From assembly GCA_012728975.1 (NCBI GenBank), contig JAAYDZ010000027.1:81553-145552 (forward strand): a stretch of DNA of 64,000 nt, given 5' to 3'. This DNA is from Bacteroidales bacterium. GTDB taxonomy: Bacteria; Bacteroidota; Bacteroidia; Bacteroidales; UBA932. The position numbers and the translations under genes are program-made. Positions 13,103 through 28,254 of this stretch are shown here, one piece after another; within the stretch, counting starts at the first letter, position 1; each line of letters opens with the position of its first letter. The notes beneath the pieces were generated by a model. It was not told where the DNA came from. It saw only the letters and a list, made by a program, of their open reading frames with translations, and did not search any database.

Positions 13103-13496
13103 GGGGATGTCTGGTTTTGACAGCATATGATGACGGATGGCAAGCATGCCGAGCTTCGTGACCTGGCTCGTTAATCTCAGATCTCAAGCCATTAACTGGC
13201 AATAACAACTATGCACTCGCTGCGTAATCTAGACTAAGTCAGATTCCTTAATCGAGCCGGCCAGGCCGGTATCGACGAGTATCCCGCCGGACTTTAAGCG
13301 GACTATGTTCGGTAAACGGGGTATCATCCAAGTTCGCTGCACGCGACTACTCCTCTACATCGCGTTAAGAAACCGAGGATAAGGAGGCGGTGGCAGGCCT
13401 GCAAGCAGTCTCCTCCCGACAATCAACAGCAGGATAAGCATGTAGAAAACCCTCTGGCGCTATGTTTGGACGGCGGTTCGACTCCGCCCATCTCCA
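13103..13496 (+). ncRNA. ssrA: tmRNA (transfer-messenger RNA)
   Basis: The 5' GGGGATGTCTGGTTTTGACAGC pairs with the 3' CATCTCC acceptor stem. The T-arm is GGCGGTTCGACTCCGCC. The tag reading frame ggc aat aac aac tat gca ctc gct gcg taa (13198-13227) encodes GNNNYALAA. The terminal CCA is not fully encoded (ACA follows the stem). Confidence 0.95.
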
Positions 13497-13522
13497 CAAA
13501 GTTGTTTTAGGTGAAAAAATTG

Positions 13523-13566
13523 ACGCAGAACTTTACGCTGAAAGGCGTGGGGTTCTGCGTTTTTTC
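13523..13566 (+). terminator. intrinsic terminator of ssrA
   Basis: The stem acgcagaac (13523-13531) pairs with gttctgcgt (13552-13560) and is followed by TTTTT (13561-13565). Confidence 0.8.
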
Positions 13567-13627
13567 GTGGTACGTGTTGCGAGTTAAGTAGTGCGAGTTA
13601 GGGGTTATAGCGTGTTAGGGTAGGAGG
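13567..13627 (+). repeat. G/T-rich word repeat, copy B
   Basis: gtggtacgtgttgcgagttaagtagtgcgagttaggggttatagcgtgttagggtaggagg lies immediately after the ssrA terminator. Confidence 0.6.
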
Positions 13628-13697
13628 ATGATAGTAGTGCTCCAAGAACTGTTACAATCTCAATCGTTTAGGTTGCTGATAAGGTAATAATTTTACT

Positions 13698-13705
13698 TAT
13701 CTTTG
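13698..13705 (+). promoter_or_regulatory. -7 promoter box TATCTTTG upstream of the GLPGLI gene
   Basis: TAnnTTTG match lying 74 nt upstream of the ATG at 13780. Confidence 0.4.
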
Positions 13706-13779
13706 CTTACAAAACAAGTTTCTGGTGATGAAATAGTTGAAGTATATGGCATAAGAAACTTATTATTTGGAATAATATT

Positions 13780-14607
13780 ATGATCAATGTATTTAATAAA
13801 ATGGCTTTTGCCTGTTTACTCTTATCGGTTCAGATTGGAGTATTTGCTCAAAAAAATGTTATTCTCGAGCCTGCTATTATAGAGTGTCGTTATCTTGATA
13901 GATCGATGAAGGATACACTGACCGGTCAAATAGAGGCTGATACAATGATATTACGCATAGGGCGAAATGTTTCCTGTTTTTACAGTAAGGACGTTCTGTT
14001 TAGCGATTCCTTAAAGCGGACACCTAATGGAACCACTAAATGGATAAACCTTATGGGTCAATACGCGAGAGAAGGTCGTAGTCGAGATCTGCTCTGTAAT
14101 GATAGTGACTATTATTATTTAGATTATCCTGAACAGGGTCAGATAACAGTGAGGACAAAAGTTAACAATAAAGGGGTTGAATATACGGAGGAACGAGAAA
14201 CTCTTCAATGGGAGTTCCGAGATTCCGTTAAGACTGTACTAGGGTTTGAGTGCTATTTGGCTGAGGCGAATTTTCGTGGCAGAAAATGGCTAGCTTGGTA
14301 CACACTTGAAGTTCCTGTTTCACAAGGACCTTGGAAACTATGGGGGTTGCCTGGCTTGATCTGCGAGGCTTATGAAGATCAAGGTCAATACAGCTATTCG
14401 TTAGTCTCATTCACTCCCAATCCGGGTGGGGATATTATGTTGTATAATTTGTTTAAGTCATACGAAAAGAAGAGCCGTTTTGAGGTATTTGAGGCCCTTG
14501 TACGGCACCGGGAGTTAATGATAGAAGATGCGCGTCAGAGCGGAAACTCTTGGATGATAGGACATGGACGCTCCCCTGGGCGTAAAGAATTGGATTGGAT
14601 GCGATAA
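13780..14607 (+). CDS. GLPGLI family protein
   Basis: 275 aa with a signal peptide and the diagnostic WGLPGLI motif (PWKLWGLPGLICEAYE). Confidence 0.85.
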   Translation: MINVFNKMAFACLLLSVQIGVFAQKNVILEPAIIECRYLDRSMKDTLTGQIEADTMILRIGRNVSCFYSKDVLFSDSLKRTPNGTTKWINLMGQYAREGRSRDLLCNDSDYYYLDYPEQGQITVRTKVNNKGVEYTEERETLQWEFRDSVKTVLGFECYLAEANFRGRKWLAWYTLEVPVSQGPWKLWGLPGLICEAYEDQGQYSYSLVSFTPNPGGDIMLYNLFKSYEKKSRFEVFEALVRHRELMIEDARQSGNSWMIGHGRSPGRKELDWMR

Positions 14608-14618
14608 TATAAATCACC

Positions 14619-17237
14619 ATGCTAAAGATTCGCCTGTTTCTGATACTTGTTGCCTTGTTTTACTTGGCAACAGCCTCTGCCCAGAGCGTAATCTCAGGTA
14701 CAGTAAGGTATGCTGAGGAAGGTGGGGGACCTGCAGCCGGCATAGGCGTAATGATGATGTCCGTCGACGGGAAATCTATGTTGGGCTTCCAGAACTCAGA
14801 CTCGGAAGGTGCGTTCTCACTAACGTATCGTGGCAATGCTGACTCACTGCTGATACGCTGCCACGCGCTTGACATTAAGCCCCTGGAACGGCGGATTGCA
14901 GCAAGAACGCAGCAGTTGCAGCTTGTAGTTGAGTCTGCACCATTATCCATAGCGGAGGCGCGTATTAAAGAACCTCCGATGCGACAGCGAGGAGATACGC
15001 TTATTTATACTGTGGCACAATACCTCGATAGCACCGATCGGGCAATTGCCGATGTGCTAAAGAAGATGCCGGGCATCTACGTGGAAAAGAGTGGCAAGGT
15101 CTCTTACAATGGCAAGGAAATTATCCGTTTCTATATAGAGGGGATGGATATGCTTGGCCGTAACTATGGTGTAGCAACAAACAATATTAAAGCATCGGAT
15201 ATAGCCTCGGTAGAGGTATATGAGCGTCACCAGCCTATACGGGCACTCGAATCACTGGAACGTCCCGACCAGGCGGCACTTAATCTGAAGCTGAAAGAGT
15301 CAGCTCGCGGAGCCTGGACGACAACCCTTCAACTGGGAGGAGGATACAAGCCTTGGATGTGGAATGCAGAGGCAGTGGCTATGTATTTTACCAGAAAAGT
15401 TCAGACAATGCTCACTTACAAAACCAACAACGAGGGAGACGATGTGGTGATCTCTGAACTGATTTCGTTTGAAATACCACTAATTGAAGGTGCTGCGTCA
15501 CTGTTGAACTTGCGCATACCCTCAGAGCCGCCGGTTGATCGTTCGCGCTATCTTATGAATAATGTCCATGCGGTCTCGACCAATGTACTAACACGCCTTC
15601 GTCCTACCATTGATCTTTCTGCGCGGGCATCATATATCCACGATCGTCAGACTGCTGAAGGTAGTTCGCTGACCCGTTATTATTTCCTGCAGGAGCAACC
15701 GGTGGATGTTGAGGAACTCATCTCCTCACAAATTCGTACAGATCAAGCTGAAGTTTCGATACGACTCGTGAATAATAGTGCAACTCACTATCTAGACGAG
15801 CGGCTGAACATTACGGGACGGCTGTACGACGCCAACGGCACGGTAGGGAGCATCAATCAAAATCTATATCGTCCGGCCTTTTCTATTGAGAATCGTTTCT
15901 CTGATATGATTCGAAAGAACGAACGGATTTATTCCGTCAATTCCAATACTTCCTATACGGAGGGGAGCGCCACGCTTAAAGTCTCGCCGCTGCCTTTCAA
16001 TGACCTGGCCACTGAATTTGCTCCTAATGCCGTACAACAACTTTACACGCGGCGGCTCGATAGCCAAAATAATCTTCGCTGGTCACAAAACATAGGTTAT
16101 TGGCAGATGATGGTACGGGCCTATTTCAATGCTCGGATCGAAAACATGGAGTCAACCTTTTTACTCGCTGATAGTGAATTCTATACTTTTCCTGCTGTAG
16201 ATTCGATGACCAATGACGTATCGCTCCGTCGTTTCGATGTAATTCTGGCACCCCGCTTCGAGTATAACTCCGGTGAACGGATTAAAATTTCCCTCGATTT
16301 GCCTCTCGACGTCCGATTCACTAGCTATGCAGATGAGGATGAACATCGTTTCCATTTTCTACCGAGACTCTCTCTTTCGGGAGATATCGCTGGAGGTCTG
16401 CGCTACAACCTTGATGCACGTCTCACCTCCGGTGTGGGAGGTGTAAATAGTCTCTATATGGGCTATCTGATGACGAATTATCGCAGCATCGGTCGTCGCA
16501 GCGGACAACTCCTGCATAGTTCAGGTAAGACTGCTACCGTCGGTCTTGAATACAAGAATCCATGGATTGGGATGATTACATTATTGCGTGGCACTTGGTC
16601 GCGTAATGAACAGGACTTGTTGATGGGCTCAGTCATCGAGGGTATATTGGTACGACAAGAGAGTCTGCCAATTGCACACCATTCCGATCGCTACGGTTTT
16701 GAACTGTCATACAGTCAACGTATAAGCGTACTGGCCACGACTCTGGGCATTGCGCTGAACCGTACATGGCAACAAGCCCAGATCCTACGGCAAGAGCAAC
16801 TTATACCCTCGCTCCGTGGCTTATGGCAAGGAAGGCTTACCGCTACGACTCGACTTTCCGATAAGGCACAGATATTTTATCGGGGGAGTGGTTCACTAGT
16901 AACGAGCCGAATGTCCGGAGGAGAGGATATTTCACGCTACACCTATTTGCAACAGAGTCTTTCCGGCCAGTTCGTGCTTGGCCGCGGCTTCCGTCTGGAC
17001 GGCTCCGTTGAACATTACTTCAACGACGCCGTCTCAGGCAGTCACCGCCATTTGGTCTTTGCAGACCTATCCTTTGGCTGGCTCCATAAACGCATGGAAT
17101 TCCGCCTCGAAGCTCGTAATCTATTCAACCACAAAACATTTAACTATATCAGCAGTAACAACCTCATTGATATATCAACTATGAGCCCTCTTCGCGGCGC
17201 TTCAGTGGTGTTGAAGGTGCGATTTAGTATTCTTTAA
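14619..17237 (+). CDS. TonB-dependent-receptor-like outer membrane protein with N-terminal carboxypeptidase-regulatory-like domain
   Basis: 872 aa with a signal peptide, an N-terminal VISGTVRY...G CarboxypepD_reg-like segment, a plug-like region (GDTLIYTV...KKMPGIYVE) and a long beta-rich remainder. It starts 11 nt after the GLPGLI gene. Confidence 0.75.
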   Translation: MLKIRLFLILVALFYLATASAQSVISGTVRYAEEGGGPAAGIGVMMMSVDGKSMLGFQNSDSEGAFSLTYRGNADSLLIRCHALDIKPLERRIAARTQQLQLVVESAPLSIAEARIKEPPMRQRGDTLIYTVAQYLDSTDRAIADVLKKMPGIYVEKSGKVSYNGKEIIRFYIEGMDMLGRNYGVATNNIKASDIASVEVYERHQPIRALESLERPDQAALNLKLKESARGAWTTTLQLGGGYKPWMWNAEAVAMYFTRKVQTMLTYKTNNEGDDVVISELISFEIPLIEGAASLLNLRIPSEPPVDRSRYLMNNVHAVSTNVLTRLRPTIDLSARASYIHDRQTAEGSSLTRYYFLQEQPVDVEELISSQIRTDQAEVSIRLVNNSATHYLDERLNITGRLYDANGTVGSINQNLYRPAFSIENRFSDMIRKNERIYSVNSNTSYTEGSATLKVSPLPFNDLATEFAPNAVQQLYTRRLDSQNNLRWSQNIGYWQMMVRAYFNARIENMESTFLLADSEFYTFPAVDSMTNDVSLRRFDVILAPRFEYNSGERIKISLDLPLDVRFTSYADEDEHRFHFLPRLSLSGDIAGGLRYNLDARLTSGVGGVNSLYMGYLMTNYRSIGRRSGQLLHSSGKTATVGLEYKNPWIGMITLLRGTWSRNEQDLLMGSVIEGILVRQESLPIAHHSDRYGFELSYSQRISVLATTLGIALNRTWQQAQILRQEQLIPSLRGLWQGRLTATTRLSDKAQIFYRGSGSLVTSRMSGGEDISRYTYLQQSLSGQFVLGRGFRLDGSVEHYFNDAVSGSHRHLVFADLSFGWLHKRMEFRLEARNLFNHKTFNYISSNNLIDISTMSPLRGASVVLKVRFSIL

Positions 17238-17318
17238 AAAGAATACTTTTGAAACTATCTTTATTTTTCACGGATGAACTAAGTTGGCCCGCCATTTTAG
17301 ACAGATACTATTTATCCT

Positions 17319-18248
17319 CTAAAGAAAAAACAGCGACACTCCCGCGATACTGATGATGGCGCCAACAACCTCTATAACTTTCACTTTTTGCTTAAAAATC
17401 AGGTAAGATGGTAGAATAATGAGAACCGGTGTCAGCGCCATAATGGTAGAAGCTATTCCGGCGTTGGTGTATTGCACTGCCATCAGCGAGAGAGACACAC
17501 CGATAAAGGGTCCGGTAATGGTTACAAGGGTGGCATAAAGCATTCCACGGCGATCATTTAGGGCATGGACAAGCTTTGGACCTTCCTTCCTAATCAGAAG
17601 GATTAATATAAATCCAATGGCACCCATAACAGCTCTTATAAAGGTCGAGGCGAAGGGAATCATTGTGCTCACTGTAGTGGCATTCTCAGGGATTGCAGCA
17701 TGATAGTGGCCCATACCTACCTTACTCAGTACCAGCCCCACTCCTTGACCAACTCCTGCGCCTATTCCCAGCAAAACTCCTTTTATAGGAAGTTTAAAAG
17801 CCATTTTGTGCCTCTGACCCTTACTGAGGATAGACATAGCGATGCCAGAGAGAGTTACAATCATACCCAGCAGACCTTTCCAGGAAATGGTCTCTCCGAG
17901 TAACGCCCAGCTCGTGATAGCCGCCACCGGAGGAGCCAGAGTCATAAAGAGCTGTCCGAGACGCGCTCCGATTATCAGATAGGAATTAAATAGGCACCAG
18001 TCGCCAAACACATAGCCTACGAGTCCAGAAAGAAGCAGCCAAAGCCAGGTTTGGCCATCCGCAAAGCTCGGCCAGGGTGCTCCGGTCACTATCCAAAGTG
18101 TTGCACCGAGCATTAGCAGTGACAAAACCATTCTTATGATATTAAGCTGTAACGACCCTATACGCTTTGTGCCGATCTCGGCAAAAAGTGCAGTCGCCGT
18201 CCAGCTAATAGCCACCGCCAATGATATGAGTTCTCCGGTGTATCCCAT
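17319..18248 (-). CDS. DMT (EamA) family transporter
   Basis: Ten-TM-like hydrophobic profile and duplicated EamA-type halves. The start is taken at the ATG (18246-18248) because the TTG at 18260 falls inside the -7 box. Confidence 0.8.
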   Translation of the reverse strand: MGYTGELISLAVAISWTATALFAEIGTKRIGSLQLNIIRMVLSLLMLGATLWIVTGAPWPSFADGQTWLWLLLSGLVGYVFGDWCLFNSYLIIGARLGQLFMTLAPPVAAITSWALLGETISWKGLLGMIVTLSGIAMSILSKGQRHKMAFKLPIKGVLLGIGAGVGQGVGLVLSKVGMGHYHAAIPENATTVSTMIPFASTFIRAVMGAIGFILILLIRKEGPKLVHALNDRRGMLYATLVTITGPFIGVSLSLMAVQYTNAGIASTIMALTPVLIILPSYLIFKQKVKVIEVVGAIISIAGVSLFFL

Positions 18249-18257
18249 AATAAGCGG

Positions 18258-18265
18258 CAAAGATA
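18258..18265 (-). promoter_or_regulatory. -7 promoter box (the reverse complement is TATCTTTG) for the DMT transporter
   Basis: The plus strand reads caaagata, 9 nt upstream of the ATG at 18248. Confidence 0.4.
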
Positions 18266-18274
18266 GTTATTTTT

Positions 18275-18338
18275 AGTTTTGAGTGGGGAGTTGGGAGGAA
18301 GTCGTTGGTACGAGGTTCAATAGGGAGTTATTAGTTGG
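18275..18338 (+). repeat. G/T-rich word repeat, copy E, at the left edge of the AT-rich island
   Basis: agttttgagtggggagttgggaggaagtcgttggtacgaggttcaatagggagttattagttgg. Confidence 0.5.
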
Positions 18339-18676
18339 ACAAGGACCGTCATACCTTTACGGCAGTTAAAAGATGAATCGCTTTTACTGATAAATTTAAT
18401 TGTAGCTGACTAATGCCAATGAAGACTTGAAAAAAGGGAGCTAATTGTGTACTCTGGCGTGGTTATCAAGCATAATTGGTCTGAAATATTATGATAAATA
18501 ATACTAATTTTGAGATTATGCGAACCAAGCACTATTTTCCTAATGTTGTTTTTGAGGTATGGTCCAATTTTTTTGTTAAGTTTGTTCGTTCGATTGACGA
18601 AATTCAGCGAAAAAAGTGTATCTTTTCAATGTTCAGTAGTACGTCTGGCCGAACTACAAACAGTTTATTTGATAAT

Positions 18677-19567
18677 ATGACCTTGAAATTGTTTGAATGG
18701 AATCACAGGGAGTTAGTCAAATCTCCTTTAAACTATATGGGGGGCAAGTTTAAGCTCCTTCCTCAAATTATACCTTACTTTCCAAAAGATATAAATACAT
18801 TCGTAGATTTATTTGCAGGTGGGTGTAATGTGGGTATTAACGTAATCTCACGAAAGGTCATATGTAATGATATTATTAATTATTTGATTGATATATTTAA
18901 ACTCTTTAAAAATAATACTAAAGAAGAGTCTATATCGTATATTAATTCCAGAATTTATGAATATGGATTGACCCCAAAAAACGAAGATGGATTTAAACTT
19001 TTGAGAAACGAGTATAATACTTCGCACCGTCCATTGGATTTGTTCGTTTTAATAGCACACTCCTTTAATTATCAAATAAGATTTAATTCAAAGCACATAT
19101 ACAATACTCCTTTTGGCAAAGAAAATAGTACATATAACGATGTGATGAAAATGAATTTAGACCAATTCATCGACCGGCTTCATGAAATTGATATAACTTT
19201 TACTAGTAATGATTTTCGTGATGTTGATCTGTCAGGACTGAATACTGATGACTTTGTATATTGTGATCCGCCATATCTAATTACAACGGGCTCATATAAT
19301 GATGGCAAACGTGGTTTTAAAGGTTGGGGAGACAATGATGAGTATGATCTTCTTAACCTACTTGATAACCTTAATGAAAGGAATTTGAGATTTGCGCTTT
19401 CCAATGTCTTGTGCCACAAGGGTAAGACAAATGACATACTGATTGAATGGGTTAATGTTCGAGGTTATAACACATATCACCTGAAGAAGAATTACTCTGC
19501 TTCTTCGTATCAAACCATAAATAGAAATAAAAACGCAAGTGATGAAGTTCTTATAACCAATTATTAG
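18677..19567 (+). CDS. site-specific DNA adenine methyltransferase, D12 class (Dam/EcoRV-like, alpha type)
   Basis: Motif I region NYMGGKFKLLPQIIPYFP...FVDLFAGGCNVG, motif IV DDFVYCDPPY, and the C-terminal EVLITNY. The ORF is open from 18491. I chose the ATG at 18677 (MTLKLFEW) because it gives a typical family length of about 297 aa and a near-consensus -7 box (TATCTTTT, 18619-18626) lies upstream. The ATG at 18629 is an alternative. Confidence 0.85.
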   Translation: MTLKLFEWNHRELVKSPLNYMGGKFKLLPQIIPYFPKDINTFVDLFAGGCNVGINVISRKVICNDIINYLIDIFKLFKNNTKEESISYINSRIYEYGLTPKNEDGFKLLRNEYNTSHRPLDLFVLIAHSFNYQIRFNSKHIYNTPFGKENSTYNDVMKMNLDQFIDRLHEIDITFTSNDFRDVDLSGLNTDDFVYCDPPYLITTGSYNDGKRGFKGWGDNDEYDLLNLLDNLNERNLRFALSNVLCHKGKTNDILIEWVNVRGYNTYHLKKNYSASSYQTINRNKNASDEVLITNY

Positions 19568-19572
19568 AATTA

Positions 19573-20640
19573 ATGAGATATATAGGTAATAAAGAAAACA
19601 TTATTGAAAAGATTGATGCAATACTTACAGCAAATGCCGTTGTAGGTGAGTCTTTCTTTGATTTCTTTGCAGGTACCACTAATGTTGGAAAGTATTATAA
19701 GCGAAAAGGATATAAAATATCTTCTTCAGATATGATGTATATGTCATACTGCTTACAAAAGGCTTATATAGAAAATAATGAGGAACCTCGATTTGATCGT
19801 TTAATTGATAGTTTGCCGCCAATAAATACCTCTCGTCTGTTCTCTGATCCATTTGATCACGTCCTATCTTATCTTGACAACTTGGACCCGGTTCATGGGT
19901 TTATTTATAATAATTACACGCCTGGTGGAACAAGTAATCTAGAACAGCCTCGCATGTACTTCAGTAGCGAGAATGGATCTAAAATAGATGCTATACGTCA
20001 GAGGATAGAAGAATGGTGGGAGAAGAATCTATTAACAGAATCTGAATATTTCATACTGCTTGCATGCTTAATTGAAACAGTCTCTTTTTATGCCAATGTA
20101 GCTGGCGTTTACGCAGCCTTTCATAAAAAATGGGATCCAAGGGCGGTGAAGCCTATTCAAATGAGACGTATTGAAATTATTTCTAATAATAAGGATAATA
20201 ACGTATATTGTGCAGATAGTTGCACATTACTTGATATTATCGATGTTGACATATTATATTTGGACCCTCCTTATAATGAACGACAGTATTTGCCTAATTA
20301 TCATCTTGTTGAAACAATTGCTCGGTACGACAATCCTCAGATAAAAGGTGTGACAGGAATGCGTGCTTACGAGAACAATAAGTCAGATTTTTGCAATGCA
20401 ACAAAAGCAATTGAACAACTTGATATTATTGCCAATACTGCAAAGTATAAGTTTTTGGTAATGAGCTATAATTCAGAAGGAATTATGAAGACTGATGATA
20501 TTATTGACACATTATCAAAGTTCGGAGAAGTGAAGTTAGAGCAGTTTGAGTACGCAAGATTTAAAAGCAACAATAAGGGGCTCTCTAAGACAAAGAAAAC
20601 AGTTTTTGAGGAATTATATATATTAAACCATACACAATAA
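19573..20640 (+). CDS. site-specific DNA adenine methyltransferase, D12 class (MRYIGxK / FokI-half / NlaIII-like subgroup)
   Basis: 355 aa with the N-terminus MRYIGNKENII, motif I FFDFFAGTTNVG, and motif IV ILYLDPPYNERQYLPNYHLVETIARYD. It starts 5 nt after the previous MTase. Confidence 0.85.
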   Translation: MRYIGNKENIIEKIDAILTANAVVGESFFDFFAGTTNVGKYYKRKGYKISSSDMMYMSYCLQKAYIENNEEPRFDRLIDSLPPINTSRLFSDPFDHVLSYLDNLDPVHGFIYNNYTPGGTSNLEQPRMYFSSENGSKIDAIRQRIEEWWEKNLLTESEYFILLACLIETVSFYANVAGVYAAFHKKWDPRAVKPIQMRRIEIISNNKDNNVYCADSCTLLDIIDVDILYLDPPYNERQYLPNYHLVETIARYDNPQIKGVTGMRAYENNKSDFCNATKAIEQLDIIANTAKYKFLVMSYNSEGIMKTDDIIDTLSKFGEVKLEQFEYARFKSNNKGLSKTKKTVFEELYILNHTQ

Positions 20641-22034
20641 TGGCTGCATCAAATCTATGGATATTGACCGAAGAACGGCCAAAGACTAATGTGCTTCAAA
20701 TGATTTTCTCATTCTTTGCTAAGGATATGGGTTGTGGGTTCTTTGGAACCAAGCTATGCATTATTCCGATACTGAATGAGAGGAAGTGTTTCGATTTCAC
20801 CTACAAAGTAGTTGGTTTCACCTGTGAAAGAGTCAAGAATGTTTTCATCAAGACAGTTTCTGGGAATTCCAGTTTTACCGACTTTCTGATTTATTACCAA
20901 GATACTCTGCCACAGGTTGAAGATGAGCCCCTATATGCTATAGAGGAGACAAAAACTGACGATAGTGAGAGTCGGAACACAGGAGTTTATCAACGATGCT
21001 CAAAATTCGTTTTCATTCAAAACTATTATCCAAATTGTAAGAAGATAATGCTTTATGCCCTTCAAGTTGACCAAAAGGAAGAACCTACAGAAACGTATAT
21101 CTTCGGTACAAGACTATTGTTAACGATGGGTGTCCAGATACTTGGAAAGGAATTGGATTGCAATATATTTCGACCATTCAACAATATTCAGGAAGTTATA
21201 GATGCGAAGAGAAAAATGCGTCGTCCACCTGCTGGTAATATCCCTATTTTGATTACGAGGTATCCAGATAAAATAACAGTTTCTGGTAGACTTGTCAAAA
21301 GCGGTAGCCTTTCCCATGATCCAAATATTGGGGCTTTAAGCATAATCTCTGCTGTTCTAAGAAAACTTGGTTGGAAAGGTCGTATTATTATTACTCAGCA
21401 CGGTTTAAAGCAGTCTCATATTGGTAAAAAAAATAAATTTATCCAGATAGCAAATAAAATAAACATTGAATTGGATGGCCTCACGATGCCAGTTGCTACT
21501 TTTCCTAGAGATTACTGGCGGTACGATATGTCAGGAGAAAAATTAGGTACAATTTTTATACATATTGCAGTTGAGAATTTCACAACAGGGTATTCAATCT
21601 TTGAGAATCACGCTGGGTGTGAGAAAGGATATTTTCAAACATCAGTTGGAGAGCATATCCCATTAGCCAAATATGTTAATAGAGAAGCATACAAAGCAGG
21701 TGATAAAGGCCAGATAGTTTTTATACCAGATCTAGTGTTAATTGATATTGATGAAAGAGAGGCTGTAACAATTGAGGGTAAGCGGTATGACAATATGATT
21801 AGGGGTATCAAGGAACTTAATAACTTTGATGCATTCGATGACATGTACCTCAAGAAATATTATCCTAAGTTTAAGATTGTAAGAACAGTGGTGCTTTATG
21901 GTGGCTTTGCTGAGAGACTTATTCAGGTTGAAGTCGGATTTTTGCTTAATGAAAGAGGCAAGCTTGTATTGGGACTAAAGGCGCCAAAACTTTTTACTAA
22001 AGCTATAGAGAACCTTATTGACTACTGGAAATAG
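20640..22034 (+). CDS. orphan protein, candidate restriction endonuclease (C-terminal PD-(D/E)XK-like motif)
   Basis: 464 aa. The ATG overlaps the upstream stop codon (TAATG). The C-terminal segment VFIPDLVLIDIDEREAVTIEGKRY fits PD-x15-E-x-K. I recognise no named family. The position after two MTases suggests the nuclease partner. Confidence 0.5.
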   Translation: MAASNLWILTEERPKTNVLQMIFSFFAKDMGCGFFGTKLCIIPILNERKCFDFTYKVVGFTCERVKNVFIKTVSGNSSFTDFLIYYQDTLPQVEDEPLYAIEETKTDDSESRNTGVYQRCSKFVFIQNYYPNCKKIMLYALQVDQKEEPTETYIFGTRLLLTMGVQILGKELDCNIFRPFNNIQEVIDAKRKMRRPPAGNIPILITRYPDKITVSGRLVKSGSLSHDPNIGALSIISAVLRKLGWKGRIIITQHGLKQSHIGKKNKFIQIANKINIELDGLTMPVATFPRDYWRYDMSGEKLGTIFIHIAVENFTTGYSIFENHAGCEKGYFQTSVGEHIPLAKYVNREAYKAGDKGQIVFIPDLVLIDIDEREAVTIEGKRYDNMIRGIKELNNFDAFDDMYLKKYYPKFKIVRTVVLYGGFAERLIQVEVGFLLNERGKLVLGLKAPKLFTKAIENLIDYWK

Positions 22035-22048
22035 AAAACTTGTTTTCT

Positions 22049-22675
22049 ATGGAATCATTTTTTCAATACGGCGAAAAAGAAATGTCATGGCTTAAAAACC
22101 GGGACGATAAGATGGCTGCTATAATTAGCAAGGTTGGACCTTTGAAAAGACGTGTAAATCCCGATTTGTTCGCTTCCCTTGTTTTTTCTATAGTTGGCCA
22201 ACAATTGTCAATGAAAGCCCATAGGTCGATATGGAAAAGGGTAATAGAAAAATGTGGACCAATTACACCATCTTCTATCAATGATGTGCCAATTGAGAAT
22301 CTTCAAATATGTGGTCTCTCATTAAAGAAAGCTAGGTATCTCAAAGGCGTAGCGGAAGCAATCATATCTGGCGAGTTAGACCTTGATAAGTTAAGAACGA
22401 TGAATGACGAAGACGTTATTAAAGAACTTACAGTGTTCAAAGGAATCGGCATATGGACCGCTGAAATGCTTCTTATTTTTTCCTTAGAGCGACCAAATGT
22501 TTTCAGTTTCAAAGATGTAAGCATAATTAGGGGGTTAAAAATGTTGTATCACCATATTGAAGTATCTGAAAATCGCTTCGAAAAGTACAGAAAGAAGTTC
22601 AGTCCGTATTGCACGATAGCTAGCTTTTATCTGTGGGAAATCGCAAGTGGCAATGTTGATTTAACCGACTTATAA
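22049..22675 (+). CDS. HhH-GPD superfamily DNA glycosylase (DNA-3-methyladenine glycosylase II / AlkA-type, short form)
   Basis: The start is taken at ATG 22049 (MESFFQYG). The protein has the helix-hairpin-helix FKGIGIWTAEMLLIF and a following Asp-containing segment FSFKDVSIIRGL. Its size and layout match short AlkA-like proteins. It starts 14 nt after the 464-aa ORF on the same strand. Confidence 0.75.
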   Translation: MESFFQYGEKEMSWLKNRDDKMAAIISKVGPLKRRVNPDLFASLVFSIVGQQLSMKAHRSIWKRVIEKCGPITPSSINDVPIENLQICGLSLKKARYLKGVAEAIISGELDLDKLRTMNDEDVIKELTVFKGIGIWTAEMLLIFSLERPNVFSFKDVSIIRGLKMLYHHIEVSENRFEKYRKKFSPYCTIASFYLWEIASGNVDLTDL

Positions 22676-22726
22676 AAGATTTATTTCTTTTTATAAGGTT
22701 TTGGCTGTTATGTACACTTCAAGCAA

Positions 22727-22978
22727 TCAAGTTTCATATACGGTTATCCACTCATTGTTCACTAATTTTGCAATAACGACATCATTATCATTCTCTTCTA
22801 GTTCCATCGCTAAATTCATAGCCTCTTGATGTGATAGATAACTGTCATTAGCTTCTTCTCCGTCCCTATAAAATACAGTATAGACTATTTCGTCTCTGCC
22901 TTTTACCGTCATATTTTCACAGCACTCAGGATTTATTGTTCTTGAGTTGATGTCAACTTCACTTCGAGACCGTTCCAT
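22727..22978 (-). CDS. small acidic hypothetical protein
   Basis: 83-aa ORF, rich in Asp and Glu (LAMELEENDNDVV), convergent with the MTase-glycosylase cassette. I recognise no family. Confidence 0.4.
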   Translation of the reverse strand: MERSRSEVDINSRTINPECCENMTVKGRDEIVYTVFYRDGEEANDSYLSHQEAMNLAMELEENDNDVVIAKLVNNEWITVYET

Positions 22979-23103
22979 ATAGATTATTTGTTGTTTTCAA
23001 ATGAGTAATATTAAACCATATTTCATATTATTACTTGACTACAAATATACTATAAATATAATATAATTAAATAAATATTGACAATATTATTGTATAATTT
23101 TAC

Positions 23104-23131
23104 ATAGATAGATAGATAGATAGATAGATAG
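23104..23131. repeat. tetranucleotide microsatellite (ATAG)7
   Basis: Seven perfect ATAG units lie in the intergenic region between the 22978 start (minus strand) and the -7 box at 23148. Confidence 0.95.
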
Positions 23132-23147
23132 AGCGACATGAAATATA

Positions 23148-23155
23148 TATCTTTG
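23148..23155 (+). promoter_or_regulatory. -7 promoter box TATCTTTG upstream of the truncated GDSL copy
   Basis: TAnnTTTG match lying about 147 nt upstream of the ATG at 23302. The box at 26912 has the same arrangement relative to the intact gene. Confidence 0.4.
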
Positions 23156-23301
23156 CATTGGTCCTATCCGAAAGGTTAAGACCCCGCCTCAGGAAGATTT
23201 CTTTATTGAAGTCTTCCAGTTGTATTCTGTATCCTTTCCTCAAAATTCCATTTCTCGTCTATCTTGTGTCATTTTCTCCTCTTTTTTCCTATTGTTGCAA
23301 T

Positions 23302-23679
23302 ATGAAAAGAGTTGTTTTAATGGCGGTGGTGCTGCTAATGGCGGTGGGTACTGCTGCGCAGGAGAGATATCATAAAGTAATTCCTCCCCGGCGTTATGAG
23401 GAGGCTAATAAAGAAGTGAAAGTGCGACCTTTAGCTGTATTATTCGGAGATTCTATTACCGATGCCTGGCCTATAATGAGTCCAGATTTTTTTAAGCTTA
23501 ACAATCTGATTGGTCGCGGTATCAGCGGAGAAACTACCGGAGATATGCTGATTAGATTCCAGAAAGATGTGGTCTCCCTGAGGCCTAAATATGTGGTTAT
23601 TCTTGCGGGAACAAATGACATTGTGATGAACGCTGGGCCTATCTCTTTGGAGCATATCCTTGACAATATTATCAACTAA
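23302..23679 (+). pseudogene. 5' fragment (about 125 codons) of a GDSL/SGNH hydrolase gene, a diverged duplicate of 27067-27729
   Basis: MKRVVLMAVVLLMAVGTAAQERYHKVIPPRRYEEANKEVKVRPLAVLFGDSITDAW...ILDNII is collinear with the first ~125 residues of the intact gene, with roughly nine in ten residues identical by eye. Homology stops abruptly at 23673 and a stop codon follows. The catalytic C-terminal half is missing. Confidence 0.8.
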
Positions 23680-23876
23680 CAACTTCTGGGGTGTAAAGGT
23701 TTCCCCTACTGTTAAATTATCTAAAACACGCTCTAAAAAATTCTTACCATACTTATCTCTAAAATATTGTTAATTTTCAGGTAATGCGTTCCATTTGGCA
23801 AGAATCCGTTCTTCATCTTCTTTGTAAGGCTTCCTGTTTTTTAATATTATTCGTTTACTATATATAGTAAATAAAT

Positions 23877-24488
23877 TTATTGAGTTTTTAAATACACTCT
23901 ATTAACAATTGCCTTTACTCCTGAATTAATTACAGTTTTTCCAGGACCATATTGATATTTAGTCTCATACTGTTCAGGTTGAAAAAATGTTTTTGTTACA
24001 TAAGTTTGTGATCCCGAAGTGTATGTTGAAGTTGTAGGTTTAAAGTAGCCCATATCCCAATCTGATTCAAATCTATTTTGTAATTTGCCGTTAAGATAAG
24101 TTTCTGATACGTATTTAGGCCCACTTTTTCGAACCTTCCATGATTTTACAGCATCTCCTTTGATATATTCAGTCTTTGACATTTCATTAATTTGTGCTTT
24201 CAAAATTTCCAGCCACTTATTGACTAATTTAATTTCTCTTTTTCCATATATTGTCATATATGGAAGCCCGTTGTTTTCATAAAGCATAATAGCTTTGCAA
24301 TTAAGTTTGTTCGCAATATTGAACATTTCAATAAAGTCTTTTTCGATAGTATGCAATGTAATAGAATCAGTTTGTGTTTGAAACCTCACTCGAAGTGTAG
24401 AGCCATCCTTTGTGTAAACAATTTTACTTTGGGCATTAGCATTGAAGCTTATTATAACTAGGGCTATGACGAAAATAATCCTTTTCAT
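23877..24488 (-). CDS. hypothetical secreted protein
   Basis: 203-aa ORF with the signal peptide MKRIIFVIALVIISFNANAQ and its own -7 box (plus strand caaagata, 24519-24526). Confidence 0.55.
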   Translation of the reverse strand: MKRIIFVIALVIISFNANAQSKIVYTKDGSTLRVRFQTQTDSITLHTIEKDFIEMFNIANKLNCKAIMLYENNGLPYMTIYGKREIKLVNKWLEILKAQINEMSKTEYIKGDAVKSWKVRKSGPKYVSETYLNGKLQNRFESDWDMGYFKPTTSTYTSGSQTYVTKTFFQPEQYETKYQYGPGKTVINSGVKAIVNRVYLKTQ

Positions 24489-24554
24489 AATATATTAAAT
24501 ATAAGGTTTGCGATATATCAAAGATACAAAAGTGTAGTCAATTCACAACTATGA

Positions 24555-24875
24555 TTACTTTGTGTCCCATTTATTTTCAAGTTTTTTAATTTTATTTTCC
24601 AGTTCTTTGGTTTTCTTCTCATTTTTCTTCTGGATGCTCATAAGTTCTTCTTGTCGAATGGAAATTTGTTCGCAAATTTTTGCAAGCTCCATTATGTTCT
24701 TATATATTTTCGTAAACTTAGTTTCGCTCTCTGCGCCTAATGTTTCATATTCTTCTTCAATTTCTGATTCTTTGAACCGGTCAGCGTACCATAGTTTCAG
24801 AAATCTTATCACAAGCGAAACAGCAAGTATGACTATAAGTATTACCGTAATTACAGTTCTGGTATTTTGTGTCAT
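24555..24875 (-). CDS. hypothetical single-pass membrane protein with coiled-coil tail
   Basis: 106 aa with an N-terminal TM segment (VITVILIVILAVSLVI) and a Lys/Glu-rich heptad-like C-terminus (KKNEKKTKELENKIKKLENK). The mirror plus-strand ORF is low-complexity. Confidence 0.5.
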   Translation of the reverse strand: MTQNTRTVITVILIVILAVSLVIRFLKLWYADRFKESEIEEEYETLGAESETKFTKIYKNIMELAKICEQISIRQEELMSIQKKNEKKTKELENKIKKLENKWDTK

Positions 24876-25102
24876 TTTTTAATGTTTAATAATCGTTATC
24901 ATCCATATTTTCGCAATAAGCCTTAGCCATGGGTGCTGTTTATTCATATTCTTTCTCGATAAGAGTTTTGACTTCGTGTTTTACTCTTGTAAAATTTTTA
25001 TTCACTTCATGGCTGTTTGCGATAGATCAAAGATACAAAGATCTAATCAGTTAATAAATCAATATTGTTCTTTTGGAGAAAAAAATATATATTTGTAATG
25101 TT

Positions 25103-25249
25103 ATGCGTGATATTCTATCCAGTCTAGTTGACCTCATTGTTGCAGCAGGGCCGTTTCTGACGACATTTGCTATAATCGTTGCTTATTTCTCCATTCGTTG
25201 GCTAGTAGGATATATCAAATGGTGGGATGAACACCCCAATGGAGTTTAA
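25103..25249 (+). CDS. possible small membrane protein (48 aa), below the ORF-track cutoff
   Basis: The ATG at 25103 is preceded by the -7 box TATATTTG (25088-25095). The translation is MRDILSSLVDLIVAAGPFLTTFAIIVAYFSIRWLVGYIKWWDEHPNGV, with one clear TM segment. Its 3' end overlaps the convergent 25246 gene by 4 nt. Confidence 0.3.
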   Translation: MRDILSSLVDLIVAAGPFLTTFAIIVAYFSIRWLVGYIKWWDEHPNGV

Positions 25250-25872
25250 CCTCTTTTCCCCCTTTTTCCGTAGTATAACAAAAATATTCCAAACAAAATA
25301 CCGATACAACAGGTGACTATTGAGCCTTCAAGGCCATTACTGCCACCTGTTAAGATATAAGGTCCACTAATCTCAGGGATGATTAAATTGTATTCCTTGG
25401 GGTTGCCGGAAACACTACTGCCAAAGATGGGACCTAACATAAAATTCCATGCCCAATGAATGCCGATTGGAATCCATAAAAAGGCAAAATTAAGAAGTAG
25501 TGCAACCCAATTGACTTGTATGGACTCTACCCTATAAATACCTATTATAGCAAGCACGCCGACTACCGTAGCAATGAATAGGGTGCCTATGGCAAATCCT
25601 GTCAGCAAATCAGGTAATGCCCTGTTTATCTTTAATTCCGATACTTTTCTCTTCTCAATTTTTTTTATGTGGAGTGTATAAAGTACCAAAACTATGAGCC
25701 CAACAAGAAGTAGAAGAGCAGCCTTAATCCATGGTTTATTGCTGAAAGTGCATGCAACAGGAGCAACCTGTGACAGCACAAAAAAGAACGCAGACCCAAA
25801 TACAATCAGTAAAATCCACTTCCACAATGGAGTGCGTTTTCTCAAGTTATTCATAAAACGAAGGCTACTCAA
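25246..25872 (-). CDS. polytopic membrane protein with degenerate CPBP (CAAX protease/Abi)-like C-terminal motif
   Basis: 208 aa with several TM segments. IGIHWAWNF resembles the CPBP HxxxN motif, but I see no EExxxR or FxxxH motifs. It overlaps the upstream gene by 8 nt (25865-25872). Confidence 0.4.
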   Translation of the reverse strand: MSSLRFMNNLRKRTPLWKWILLIVFGSAFFFVLSQVAPVACTFSNKPWIKAALLLLVGLIVLVLYTLHIKKIEKRKVSELKINRALPDLLTGFAIGTLFIATVVGVLAIIGIYRVESIQVNWVALLLNFAFLWIPIGIHWAWNFMLGPIFGSSVSGNPKEYNLIIPEISGPYILTGGSNGLEGSIVTCCIGILFGIFLLYYGKRGKRG

Positions 25873-26788
25873 TCCCCGTCAATAGCATTCTGCTTGTCAG
25901 TTTTCCTTTTGCGTCGTAATGTTCAGTTTTTACTACTCCGAGACCTTTTCCTATCCAGGTGATGGTGGTGCCTTGTTGTGTGCCGACTATAGGATAGTCA
26001 GCTGATACGGTTTGTATAAGCTTAAAACATACGAACTGCCCAACGGGAGTATCTACTATTTCTGCACGAACTGCTTTTCGATTAAATATCTGGAACTCTA
26101 GTGGTGGCATATCCATTACATCCGTTCCGGTCTCCATTTTCATTTTCAACGTGGCCTTGGCGTCAGGAAGGGATTGTCCTGGTTTGAGTTTTGTGGGGAT
26201 CACCATATCGTTTCCGGTCATGCTGGCATCGAAGTCGGCTCCTTCCAATCCTTTTGGCGGTATAACGTCAAGCATATTCACGTAGAAATTGCCGCTTTGT
26301 GCACGCATCGTAAAGGTACCGCCATTTTGAACCCGTCCTTTTGCATCGGTTATTTTGCCTGATACAGTGGCTTTCACGCTAGTCTTTGTTCGGTTAAGTT
26401 CTATGACCTCTGATTTGTTGTATCCCTGTACTTTGCCTTTGCCATTGTACATGGTGTAGGTAATTACTGCTCCTTTTTTTAGGGCATAATAGGGTTCGTT
26501 ATTGTCCCAGTCGGAGGTGTTGTCAGCAGGAGTACCCGTATCAGCCGGTTCAACGATGGAAACATCAGGTTTTTTTTGCTTTTTCTGTTTCGCAAGTTCT
26601 TCAGCTTCGTCGAAGGCTTTATCCACGGCTTTTTTCGTTTTTTCCTGGACCTTTTCTTCGACCTTTTGTTTCGCCGCCTCTTCCGCTTTTTTGCCCAATT
26701 GCTTCATCCAGCTCTGGGCACTGACTTCACTGATGTTCCCGACCGCCAATAGCAGGACGAGAACTAAAGTTAGTTGTCTTGGTTTCAT
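25865..26788 (-). CDS. hypothetical secreted protein with Lys/Glu-rich N-terminal linker
   Basis: 307 aa with the signal peptide MKPRQLTLVLVLLLAVGNISEVSAQ, then a KQKVEEKVQEKTKK low-complexity stretch, then a beta-rich domain. It has its own -7 box (plus strand caaagata, 26861-26868). Confidence 0.55.
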   Translation of the reverse strand: MKPRQLTLVLVLLLAVGNISEVSAQSWMKQLGKKAEEAAKQKVEEKVQEKTKKAVDKAFDEAEELAKQKKQKKPDVSIVEPADTGTPADNTSDWDNNEPYYALKKGAVITYTMYNGKGKVQGYNKSEVIELNRTKTSVKATVSGKITDAKGRVQNGGTFTMRAQSGNFYVNMLDVIPPKGLEGADFDASMTGNDMVIPTKLKPGQSLPDAKATLKMKMETGTDVMDMPPLEFQIFNRKAVRAEIVDTPVGQFVCFKLIQTVSADYPIVGTQQGTTITWIGKGLGVVKTEHYDAKGKLTSRMLLTGIE

Positions 26789-26911
26789 TTTGTGTGGTTG
26801 TTAGATTGTTTGACTGCTTTATTCTTGTGGTTATGGTTTGCAGCTTTTTTTTCTACAATTCAAAGATATATAAATATATGTAATTCACAACGTTAGTATT
26901 ATAAAAAGTAT

Positions 26912-26919
26912 TATCTTTG
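26912..26919 (+). promoter_or_regulatory. -7 promoter box TATCTTTG upstream of the intact GDSL gene
   Basis: TAnnTTTG match lying about 148 nt upstream of the ATG at 27067. It implies a long leader containing the GC-rich element at 26926-27012. Confidence 0.4.
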
Positions 26920-27066
26920 TACTGGGGACCCCCCCACCTGCGACTTTTTGGTGGCCCTTCGGCTTACGCCGTCGCCACGCTCGCACAAGGGCCTTCGTCA
27001 TCGGAGGTCCTTATTTTATTACTATTTTCCTTTGTCTGCTTATTCTCTTTTTCCTATTTTTGCAAT

Positions 27067-27729
27067 ATGAAAAAAATAATTTTAATGGCGGTGGTGCTTG
27101 TAATGGCGGTGGGTACTGCTGCGCAGGAAAGATATCAGAAAGTAATTCCTCCCCGGCGTTATGAGGAGGCTAATAAAGAAGTGAAAGTGAGACCTTTAGC
27201 TGTATTATTCGGAGATTCTATTACCGATGCCTGGCCTATAATGAGCCCTGATTTTTTCACCATTAATAATCTTATTGGTCGCGGTATCAGTGGAGAGACA
27301 ACAGGCGATATGCTGTTGCGGTTCCAGAAGGATGTGGTCTTTCTTAAGCCGAAATATGTGGTAATCCTGGCGGGGACAAATGATATTGCGATGAACGCAG
27401 GGCCGATCTCTCTTGAACATATCCTCGACAATATAATCTCGATGTGTCAGATTGCCAGGGCCAATCGCATCCTACCCATACTTTGCTCTGTACTGCCGGC
27501 TTATCTCTATAGTTGGCGTCAGGAGTTGACACCTGCAGAGGAAATAGTGGAGTTGAATGAGATGATCCGCGCTTATGCTGAGAGTGCCGGTATTCCCTAT
27601 GTGGATTACCATTCGCAGATGAAGGATGAGCGTAACGGACTTCCGGAGAATCTCGGGCCGGACGGTGTACACCCCAATCTTGAGGGTTATCGGATTATGG
27701 AGGAAATACTCATCGATTTTCTTAAGTAG
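27067..27729 (+). CDS. GDSL/SGNH family hydrolase (lipase/acylhydrolase)
   Basis: The start is taken at MKKIILMAVV (ATG 27067). The protein has a signal peptide, block I FGDSITD, block III GTND, and a C-terminal DGVHPN (Asp/His of the catalytic triad). Confidence 0.85.
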   Translation: MKKIILMAVVLVMAVGTAAQERYQKVIPPRRYEEANKEVKVRPLAVLFGDSITDAWPIMSPDFFTINNLIGRGISGETTGDMLLRFQKDVVFLKPKYVVILAGTNDIAMNAGPISLEHILDNIISMCQIARANRILPILCSVLPAYLYSWRQELTPAEEIVELNEMIRAYAESAGIPYVDYHSQMKDERNGLPENLGPDGVHPNLEGYRIMEEILIDFLK

Positions 27730-27735
27730 AGTAGT

Positions 27736-28254
27736 ATGACCGCTGACATCAATATACGCCAGGCGACAAAAGAAGATATCGCTCTGATTCGCAATTTGGC
27801 GCAAATTATATTTCCCCACACCTATGGGAAGATGCTCTCTCAGGAGCAGATCGACTATATGATGGGGTGGATGTACTCTCCTAAAAATATTGCAGCAGGA
27901 TTGGATTCGGGGCAGGAATATTTTATTGTGGAAGTTGAAGGGGAGGCGGTAAGTTATGCAGGAATTGCGCCTCAAGAGGATGATCCCGATGGCACCAAGG
28001 TATTTGAATTGATGCGCCTATATATTCTTCCGGAATATCAGAAAACAGGGCTTGGCAAACTATTGTTCGAGCATGTTTGCGAGCATATTCGCAGCAAGGG
28101 CTTCAAAAAGTGCAGAATGATGCTACATGTCAACAGGGAGAATCCAGCGGTGCAATTCTATTTGCATCAAGGGATGCAAATCCTTTATAGCAAGGACTTT
28201 GATATAGGTCACAATTTCTGGATGACCGATCATATCATGGGGATGTATCTCTGA
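27736..28254 (+). CDS. GNAT family N-acetyltransferase
   Basis: 172 aa. LYILPEYQKTGLGKLLF matches the acetyl-CoA binding motif A (Q/RxxGxG/A). Confidence 0.85.
   Translation: MTADINIRQATKEDIALIRNLAQIIFPHTYGKMLSQEQIDYMMGWMYSPKNIAAGLDSGQEYFIVEVEGEAVSYAGIAPQEDDPDGTKVFELMRLYILPEYQKTGLGKLLFEHVCEHIRSKGFKKCRMMLHVNRENPAVQFYLHQGMQILYSKDFDIGHNFWMTDHIMGMYL

Follow-up and report, generated by a model that had tools for sequence, protein, structure and literature searches.

A probable mobile BtsCI-type restriction-modification cassette with split FokI-type methylases and a lineage-specific accessory repair glycosylase in a Bacteroidales bacterium

Four open reading frames (ORFs) follow one another on the forward strand of a contig from a Bacteroidales bacterium (JAAYDZ010000027.1). 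They lie in a stretch of 64,000 nt, hereafter the window, and all coordinates given here are positions within this stretch (Table 1). ORF1 and ORF2 are adenine methyltransferase (MTase) genes, ORF3 encodes a restriction endonuclease (REase) and ORF4 a DNA glycosylase. A first-pass annotation of the same DNA had reported this four-gene layout, and we confirm it. Five nucleotides separate ORF1 from ORF2 (TAG-aatta-ATG), the stop of ORF2 and the start of ORF3 overlap in a TAATG (20638-20642), and a 14-nt gap lies between ORF3 and ORF4 (TAG-aaaacttgttttct-ATG). The peptides that had been quoted are all present in the translations, i.e., FAGGCNVG, VYCDPPY, and EVLITNY in ORF1; and MRYIGNK, FFAGTTNVG, and LYLDPPYNERQYLPNYHLVE in ORF2. 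The AT-richness that had been noticed is also borne out, since the guanine-cytosine (GC) content is 0.31-0.38 over 18500-25500 vs. 0.43-0.51 in the flanks, and 35.2% in the cassette vs. 43.4% in the window without the island. However, the AT-rich tract is not limited to the four genes and extends beyond them, forming an island of 8.7 kb that is described below.

Table 1. Features of the cassette and of the island that carries it, in window coordinates
Feature	Coordinates	Strand	Remark
ORF1 (M-C), D12/Dam-family N6-adenine MTase, 296 aa from Met63	18677..19567	+	longest ORF from 18491
ORF2 (M-N), D12-class N6-adenine MTase, 355 aa	19573..20640	+	
ORF3 (R), REase, 464 aa, BtsCI-family Type IIS	20640..22034	+	two PD-(D/E)XK-type sites per chain
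ORF4, AlkA/Mag-type HhH-GPD DNA glycosylase, 208 aa	22049..22675	+	alternative TTG start 22040
Candidate Bacteroidetes-type promoter, TTTG-N22-TAAGTTTG	18551..18584	+	consensus match; function inferred
83-aa acidic ORF, convergent with ORF4	22727..22978	-	homology to L089 ends at 22882
Strain-polymorphic AT-rich island, 8.7 kb	18314..27047	.	between EamA transporter and GDSL-lipase genes
Truncated duplicate of GDSL-lipase 5' end and promoter region	23272..23673	+	separates modules A and B

The product of ORF3 is matched by no model of Pfam, NCBIfam, or PHROGs. It matches the PADLOC model REase_II PDLC03445 (E 1.7e-71) and has at least 2669 homologs, mostly of about 466 aa and nearly all without a name, in a family that comprises 437 clusters at 50% identity. 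One representative of the family, P0409, matched by phmmer in 1.84 billion proteins (E 9.6e-68), is the characterised enzyme BtsCI of Ureibacillus thermosphaericus (ACZ62642.1). This protein clusters with the synthetic top-strand and bottom-strand nicking enzyme variants of BtsCI, and it holds S120, D121, E128, Q144, R145, P387, D388, E403, and E405 at the published numbers (PMC2831314). By BLASTP, ORF3 and BtsCI are 34% identical (E 3e-81), with residues 6-444 aligned to residues 5-464. The description of ORF3 as an orphan that fits no family therefore fails, both by the number of its homologs and by its full-length similarity to a characterised enzyme. On these alignments, ORF3 is a BtsCI-family Type IIS endonuclease, and this family belongs with the monomers that have two catalytic sites (Mva1269I/BsmI/BsrI/BtsCI group).

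Both of BtsCI's catalytic sites can be followed residue by residue in ORF3. In BtsCI, mutations of D121/E128/R145 and of D388/E403/E405 give strand-specific nickases, and the corresponding motifs have been written (S/K)(D/E)-X6-E-X14-QR for the bottom-strand site and PD-Xn-E-X-(K/E) for the top-strand site (PMC2831314). At the N-terminal, bottom-strand site (Cb), D121/E128/Q144-R145 of BtsCI align to D95/E102/Q118-R119 of ORF3; at the C-terminal, top-strand site (Ct), D388/E403/E405 align to D364/E379/K381. The latter site reads P363-D364-X14-E379-G-K381 in ORF3, and its D-to-E spacing equals that of BtsCI. We counted residue conservation over 76 sequences, namely 75 full-length representatives of the family and ORF3 itself, and the catalytic columns are kept in 72-76 of them. 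In Cb, the columns of E102, Q118, and R119 are conserved in 73-74 sequences and K105 is almost invariant; in Ct, D364 is found in 76/76 and E379 in 75/76. Position 381 is a lysine in 47 sequences and a glutamate in 28, and this split agrees with the EXK and EXE variants published for the Ct site of BtsCI homologs (PMC2831314). The column of D95 (D121 of BtsCI) is variable, with an aspartate in 35 of the 76 sequences, and D81 of ORF3 is conserved in 74 of them. D81, E102, and K105 look like a canonical PD-(D/E)XK triad, and the published bottom-strand motif of BtsCI may misname the true catalytic Asp.

Searches of ORF3 against PDB chains by sequence, with the single sequence or with a 58-sequence profile, returned nothing meaningful. 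The AlphaFold2 models are confident, with predicted local distance difference test (pLDDT) values of 88 (full-length ORF3) and 90, and they display an alpha/beta - central - alpha/beta layout. In the crystal structures of BsmI, two PD-(D/E)XK nuclease domains flank a central domain, and the whole-protein searches made by the BsmI authors matched nothing. The ORF3 model is consistent with a PD-(D/E)XK layout, and we do not use it as proof.

ORF1 and ORF2 both match Pfam PF02086 (E 5.6e-36 and 3.2e-35, respectively), and ORF1 passes the TIGR00571 Dam family threshold (162 bits vs. a cutoff of 114.85). The motif order is the same in both proteins, FAGGCNVG preceding DPPY in ORF1 and FAGTTNVG preceding DPPY in ORF2. 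The PADLOC model MTase_II PDLC03287, which has 646 positions, is shared between them: ORF2 occupies positions 1-334 (E 2.3e-95) and ORF1 positions 341-641 (E 2e-110). An artificial fusion of ORF2 with ORF1, in this order, is colinear with natural fused MTases of 640-665 aa, at 44-47% identity and 100% coverage; these natural matches bear generic "Dam family" names only, and none is labelled M.FokI or M.BtsCI. The kinship with the M.FokI halves that the first-pass annotation had suggested is thus supported, ORF2 and ORF1 being the N- and C-part of one fused model. So is its reading of two D12-class adenine MTases with one nuclease as a Type IIS arrangement, in which each MTase serves one strand of an asymmetric site. 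As judged by this colinearity, ORF2 is the N-half and ORF1 the C-half of a FokI-type two-domain adenine methylase. By analogy with M.FokI, ORF1 presumably methylates the CATCC strand, and ORF2 is predicted to methylate the GGATG strand.

The ORF1 gene is real, and its start at 18491, as it was first called, is probably over-extended. Homologs of ORF1 align from residue ~74 onward only, the DNA homology to the cassettes of two other contigs (L089 and L093, see below) begins at nt 18676, the gene caller in contig L081 chose Met63, which gives a product of 296 aa (the longest ORF has 358 aa), and the candidate promoter falls inside the putative N-terminal extension of the 358-aa call. Because of these four observations, the true ORF1 is most likely the 296-aa version. 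Within 18200-22675, this promoter is the single + strand match to TTTG-N17-23-TAnnTTTG, a motif found 9 times in the whole window vs. 2.5 expected. No terminator-like site was found inside the four-gene block. We infer that the four genes would form one transcript from a promoter near 18.55 kb, and ORF4 is probably included in it because of its 14-nt gap to ORF3, the lack of an internal terminator-like site, and the lack of a second promoter-like motif.

The first-pass annotation had called ORF4 an AlkA-type enzyme, and both Pfam (PF00730, 59.6 bits vs. a cutoff of 26.2) and the PDB support this. The matches to 3-methyladenine glycosylases in the PDB include the 3-methyladenine glycosidase 2h56 (E 2.5e-31), AlkA2 of D. 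radiodurans (2yg8, 2.9e-29), Mag1 of S. pombe (3s6i, 6e-26), and 4b21 (7e-21), with S. pombe Mag2 among them, while ORF4 is farther from Ogg (~1e-10) and EndoIII (~1e-3). The catalytic D156 after the hairpin, which is invariant across the family alignment, is kept. We looked for signs of neofunctionalisation at the family-conserved positions: 51 of 60 are kept by all three R-M-linked glycosylases (R-M, restriction-modification), and the 9 differences are conservative changes only (T60S, L157V/I, and A158S across the clade). The relatives of ORF4 at 41-54% identity are repair genes, whose contexts include an overlap with Ogt, Ada-Ogt fusions, and nearby UvrD/RecA genes; those linked to Ada/Ogt are 45-54% identical to ORF4. 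In 80 independent metagenome loci that carry such relatives, an Ada/Ogt-type gene lies within 5 kb of the glycosylase in 43, and a D12 MTase or BtsCI-like nuclease lies beside it in none (0/80). The top Pfam families among 120 immediate neighbours of these relatives are the two O6-methylguanine-DNA methyltransferase domains, and no DNA MTase or REase family recurs among them. ORF4 most likely performs ordinary base-excision repair of alkylated purines. One Bacteroidales element with RteC and HTH_17 genes holds a dense alkylation-repair cluster (L090, 5674-10811), composed of an Ogt N-terminal fragment, two HhH-GPD genes, an Ada Zn-finger/Ogt fusion, DUF1848, and an AraC-Ogt fusion. This indicates that alkylation-repair genes ride on mobile DNA in this group, and ORF4 may plausibly have been captured from a mobile repair cluster of this kind.

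We compared the cassette with 80 species-representative loci and searched each for ORF4 homologs within 10 kb. These loci span Bacteroidota, spirochaetes, Fibrobacterota, Proteobacteria, candidate phyla radiation (CPR) bacteria, and archaea, with nucleases 59-74% identical, and most of them have the order M(C-half)-M(N-half)-R, a few being rearranged. Seven loci of the family (L042, L050, L054, L058, L060, L063, and L067) differ in gene order, five with the nuclease gene upstream of both MTase genes and two with it in between, so that the cassette has been rearranged several times with all three genes kept. In L096 (1834-6966), the genes after a nuclease homolog of 590 aa (70% identity) encode an N6_N4-class MTase and an AAA_13 ATPase in place of the usual partners, and this may represent a hybrid or a neighbouring second defence system. 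Neither tblastn nor a family hidden Markov model (HMM) detected an ORF4 homolog in any of the 80 loci (0/80). The composite system proposed in the first-pass annotation would call for a glycosylase that regularly accompanies the M-M-R genes in related cassettes, and this was not observed.

The glycosylase-bearing cassettes are those of the window's species, of L089, and of L093 only. Among 5.8 billion proteins, ORF4 has a single close relative, 70% identical, and it is encoded in L089, where the same four-gene order stands beside HTH_17, DUF3853, and PriCT_2/DUF3987 primase genes, i.e., in a mobile-element setting. L093, whose nuclease is 80% identical to ORF3, also carries the glycosylase downstream of R, with the four genes again in this order and beside primase/HTH_17 mobile-element genes. 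In L095 (R 77% identical), the backbone is the same and a deletion of ~530 bp has spared only the initial ~108 nt of the gene for the glycosylase. The DNA homology between the window and L089 is continuous over 18676-22882, across the R-ORF4 junction, and ends within the small convergent ORF that follows ORF4. This 83-aa ORF was found by tblastn in L089, L093, and L095 (54-69% identity) and in same-species contigs only, has no match in Pfam, PADLOC, or PHROGs, and may mark the end of the shared module. Within this sub-clade, the two MTases and the nuclease are 77-81% identical at the amino-acid level and the glycosylase 69-71%, and synonymous sites have reached saturation. The ratio of nonsynonymous to synonymous substitution rates (dN/dS) of the glycosylase between L089 and L093, 0.10, equals that of the nuclease. 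In either host the cassette, with ORF4 included, is rich in AT, with a GC content of 35% vs. 43% here and of 38% vs. 57% in L089. As read from these comparisons, ORF4 has co-diverged with the cassette and is under purifying selection.

The island in which the cassette lies is polymorphic between strains. It is made of module A (18314-23271, with the cassette), a truncated copy of the 5' end of the GDSL-lipase gene, and module B, which holds four minus-strand genes; the GC contents of modules A and B are 34.6% and 37.3%, compared with 43.4%. In two empty-site contigs (L109 and L111), the gene for an identical EamA protein lies directly beside the GDSL-lipase gene and the whole island is missing. 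L109 and one of the contigs that bear the cassette stem from a single sample. By blastn, L109 matches the window over 13337-18313 at 99.8% identity, and the match resumes at 23272-23673 (88.8%) and 27048-27970 (85.5%). No target-site duplication or integrase was found at the island ends. The truncated GDSL copy is 89% identical to 27048-27347, at the start of the complete gene. At the empty site, the GDSL gene is only 85-89% identical to either copy in the window, despite the 99.8% identity of the left flank, and this discrepancy suggests both a recombination breakpoint at 18313/18314 and a history more complex than a single insertion. Because of the empty sites, of the four-gene blocks in L089 and L093, and of its GC content, ORF4 is not a resident host gene but a part of the mobile cassette, in this sub-clade only.

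FokI and StsI recognise GGATG and cut at 9/13 and 10/14, respectively. They share with the present cassette the predicted site and a homologous methylase with two D12 domains, one per strand. The FokI nuclease, on the contrary, is unrelated to ORF3 in sequence and combines recognition with a single cleavage domain that requires transient dimerisation, whereas ORF3 would be one monomer with two catalytic sites, predicted to cut next to its site. BtsCI itself (Ureibacillus thermosphaericus; GGATG 2/0; GQ449683; PMC2831314) resembles ORF3 in size (465 vs. 464 aa), in its full-length homology, and in the colinearity of both catalytic sites, and its methylase is of the M.FokI type (62% identity between M.BtsCI and M.FokI, PMC2831314). 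It differs by an E-X-E at Ct, where ORF3 has the canonical E-X-K, and by an insertion of ~26 aa before the Cb site. Moreover, M.BtsCI is one fused protein, while two genes are found here, C-half then N-half, and no glycosylase gene has been described in the BtsCI system. In Cup_ORF1489 (Campylobacter upsaliensis RM3195) and Nfl_ORF1032 (Neisseria flavescens SK114), BtsCI homologs of 463-472 aa with an E-X-K Ct, each nuclease is accompanied, as here, by two MTases that match the halves of M.BtsCI; we liken them on their published description, which reports no glycosylase (PMC2831314). The closest architecture is that of Pin17FI and Pin25611FI of Prevotella intermedia, another member of the Bacteroidales (PMC5608340): their M2-M1-R genes measure 936/1068/1401 nt vs. 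891/1068/1395 nt here, M1.Pin17FI having exactly the length of ORF2 (1068 nt), and no adjacent glycosylase is reported. Pin17FI is placed in the family by architecture and sizes only. As for ORF4, it shares the HhH-GPD fold and the catalytic Asp with the AlkA/Mag enzymes of Ada-type operons (2h56, 2yg8, 3s6i, and 4b21), but it stands outside any Ada/Ogt context, inside an R-M operon on mobile DNA. Vsr endonucleases, whose genes are paired with those of 5-methylcytosine (m5C) MTases, are a precedent for a repair-type enzyme linked to a methylase, and their linkage is widespread and mechanistically explained. Dag and Brig1 are a precedent for glycosylases that act in defence islands; they have proven anti-phage activity and diverge in sequence from housekeeping enzymes.

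We consider it probable that the locus is a mobile BtsCI-type Type IIS cassette with split FokI-type methylases, joined by a lineage-specific accessory repair glycosylase. The two MTases would each protect one strand of an asymmetric site, and the nuclease, acting as a monomer, would nick the bottom strand with its N-terminal site and the top strand with its C-terminal site, close to the recognition sequence (2/0 in BtsCI). This sequence is, by analogy, most likely GGATG/CATCC. The proposal draws on the Prevotella systems, which are active, have been called "FokI-like", and carry N6-methyladenine (m6A) at GGATG and CATCC according to single-molecule real-time (SMRT) sequencing (PMC5608340); on the gene order and sizes shared with them; and on the BtsCI homologs with split MTases. 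The specificities CATG and GATC were also considered, and nothing favoured either over GGATG. Several observations count against this picture. ORF3 is only 34% identical to BtsCI, and Pin17FI is linked to the cassette by gene order, sizes, and taxonomy alone, not by sequence. GGATG/CATCC is not depleted in the window (130 observed vs. 142.8 expected, O/E 0.91, z -1.4, rank 86 of 512), a result that is uninformative on specificity, and the single site in the cassette, for 4.8 expected, is too few to mean anything. Foldseek searches with the models of full-length ORF3 and of its C-terminal domain gave no match at E<=1e-3 (the best being 7e-3 and 0.048); the weak top matches are PD-(D/E)XK nucleases, i.e., Mus81, Hef, BbvCI, R.BspD6I, SdaI, and N.BspD6I. 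Finally, the spacing of ORF4, the absence of a promoter-like motif of its own, its co-transfer between genomic contexts, and its purifying selection over saturating divergence exceed what a random passenger needs. The low identity to BtsCI and the lack of GGATG avoidance in the window would also fit a system that is BtsCI-like in mechanism and recognises another site, all the more as specificities differ within the BsmI/BsrI/BtsCI group (PMC2831314). We regard this as rather unlikely, given that the two MTases together align colinearly with those of the FokI type, that the BtsCI authors predicted GGATG for homologs 33% identical to BtsCI that also have split MTases (PMC2831314), and that a Prevotella system of identical architecture is methylated at this very site (PMC5608340).

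For ORF4, the same reading holds that an AlkA/Mag-type glycosylase gene was captured directly downstream of the nuclease gene in one small sub-lineage, from an Ada/Ogt-type repair context, and that it would now be co-transferred and probably co-transcribed with the cassette as accessory cargo, kept by selection and dispensable for R-M. ORF4 is not a core component, because it is absent from 80/80 cassettes, was deleted in L095, and has no relative beside such genes in 80 loci. The first-pass annotation had stated that the adjacency would be coincidental if ORF3 belonged to a characterised family and ORF4 homologs were missing from related cassettes. Both were found, the latter in 80/80, but "coincidental" is too strong. 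That a three-gene cassette inserted by pure chance beside a resident glycosylase gene is extremely unlikely: the absence of ORF4 homologs from the 80 related cassettes would fit, but in the empty-site strain ORF4 is missing together with the R-M genes, ORF4 has a cassette-like GC content in two hosts of different background, and the four-gene block recurs in another genomic context (L089 and L093) with DNA homology unbroken over the R-ORF4 junction. The empty site, together with the other genomic context, led us to reject this explanation. A functional partnership is another matter. The glycosylase could serve the two MTases by removing off-target N1- or N3-methyladenine, in the manner of Vsr or of the ALKB2/DNMT pair. 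It is co-operonic and without a promoter-like motif of its own, has been co-transferred and has co-diverged with the MTases, and keeps an unchanged alkylpurine-type active site. AlkA of A. fulgidus (2jhj/2jhn), which has the same fold and excises N1-methyladenine (1mA) and 3-methylcytosine (3mC), is matched by ORF4 at E 6.5e-13. There is also a precedent, in that DNA MTases (cytosine DNMTs) create alkylation damage (3mC) that is countered by ALKB2, at least as Rosic 2018 is cited in 10.64898/2026.01.24.701492. Yet the glycosylase is missing from 80/80 other cassettes that have these two MTases, L095 deleted it and kept R, none of the 80 loci of glycosylase relatives has a D12 MTase beside it and no DNA MTase family recurs among the 120 neighbours, and we found no literature report of N6-adenine MTases making 1mA or N3-methyladenine (3mA), so that such a clean-up role seems distinctly improbable. 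Alternatively, ORF4 could be an effector like Dag or Brig1 that excises modified purines from phage DNA escaping GGATG restriction, the operon then pairing a modification-blocked arm with a modification-dependent one. HhH-superfamily glycosylases (Dag1, Dag2, and 17 more) do defend against 7-deazaguanine phages; their genes lie in AT-rich, mobile, defence-adjacent DNA, and some were co-opted from repair enzymes (10.1101/2025.10.29.685425). ORF4 occupies such a niche, in an AT-rich polymorphic island, adjoining an R-M system, and on a primase/HTH_17 element in L089. However, Dag proteins are divergent in sequence from housekeeping enzymes, and housekeeping glycosylases gave E. coli no protection (10.1101/2025.10.29.685425), whereas ORF4, at 45-54% identity to the AlkA-type enzymes of Ada operons, does not form a distinct family, its 9 departures from the 60 family-conserved residues are all conservative, and it has no PADLOC or PHROGs match. 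With its restricted distribution and its loss in L095, we judge a phage-directed role very unlikely. Absence from 80/80 cassettes, loss in L095, and an unchanged active site weaken both forms of coupling. Accessory cargo remains our preferred reading of ORF4; recruitment as a working R-M partner, whether as a Vsr-like housekeeper or as a Dag-like second arm, is doubtful on the whole, and the comparative data leave room for a functional link of this type. The first-pass proposal of a new R-M variant, or of a defence system in which methylation, cleavage, and base excision would be coupled, is largely unsupported, since the R-M genes belong to the known BtsCI family and ORF4 accompanies 0/80 of the related cassettes.

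Several other features of the window were observed. The sole RNA gene found in it is a transfer-messenger RNA (tmRNA) gene, ssrA, at 13103-13499 (+), with the tag GNNNYALAA; it is not an integration junction, since 4.8 kb separate it from the left boundary of the island. Within the island, a (TAGA)n microsatellite of ~7 units (23101-23132) sits inside an extremely AT-rich spacer (22980-23160) that separates the 83-aa ORF from the truncated GDSL copy. A 43-nt repeat occurs three times (24506-24548, 25015-25057, and 26848-26890), with 70-81% identity to the copy taken as reference, and copies one and three each lie just upstream of a minus-strand island gene. The repeat includes CAAAGATA, which is the Bacteroidetes -7 box TAnnTTTG in reverse complement, and may be a shared promoter module. 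Outside the island, two tandem AMP-binding (acyl-CoA synthetase-like) paralogs at ~9739-13015 share ~81% DNA identity (secondary blastn matches).

In conclusion, the R-M core of this cassette is one more member of a large, widely transferred, and already catalogued family, and taken alone it matters little, BtsCI, the type enzyme, being commercial and well studied. The four-gene form that bears the glycosylase is a minor variant, apparently undescribed. Nevertheless, neither Pfam nor NCBIfam has a model of the family, whose members nearly always bear the label "hypothetical protein". Given the link to BtsCI and the mapped catalytic residues, the label of probable GGATG Type IIS nuclease, and of candidate scaffold for nicking enzymes, can be assigned to thousands of genes of Bacteroidales, spirochaetes, CPR bacteria, and archaea. 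On the other hand, the cassette with its glycosylase, the cassette in which the glycosylase was deleted (L095), and the empty site in the same population (L109) provide natural controls, which bear on a possible alkylation-damage cost of adenine methylases and on a possible co-option of ordinary repair glycosylases into defence islands. If neither holds, the glycosylase is just cargo; if the coupling is true, no R-M operon before this one would have had a dedicated HhH-GPD base-excision component.

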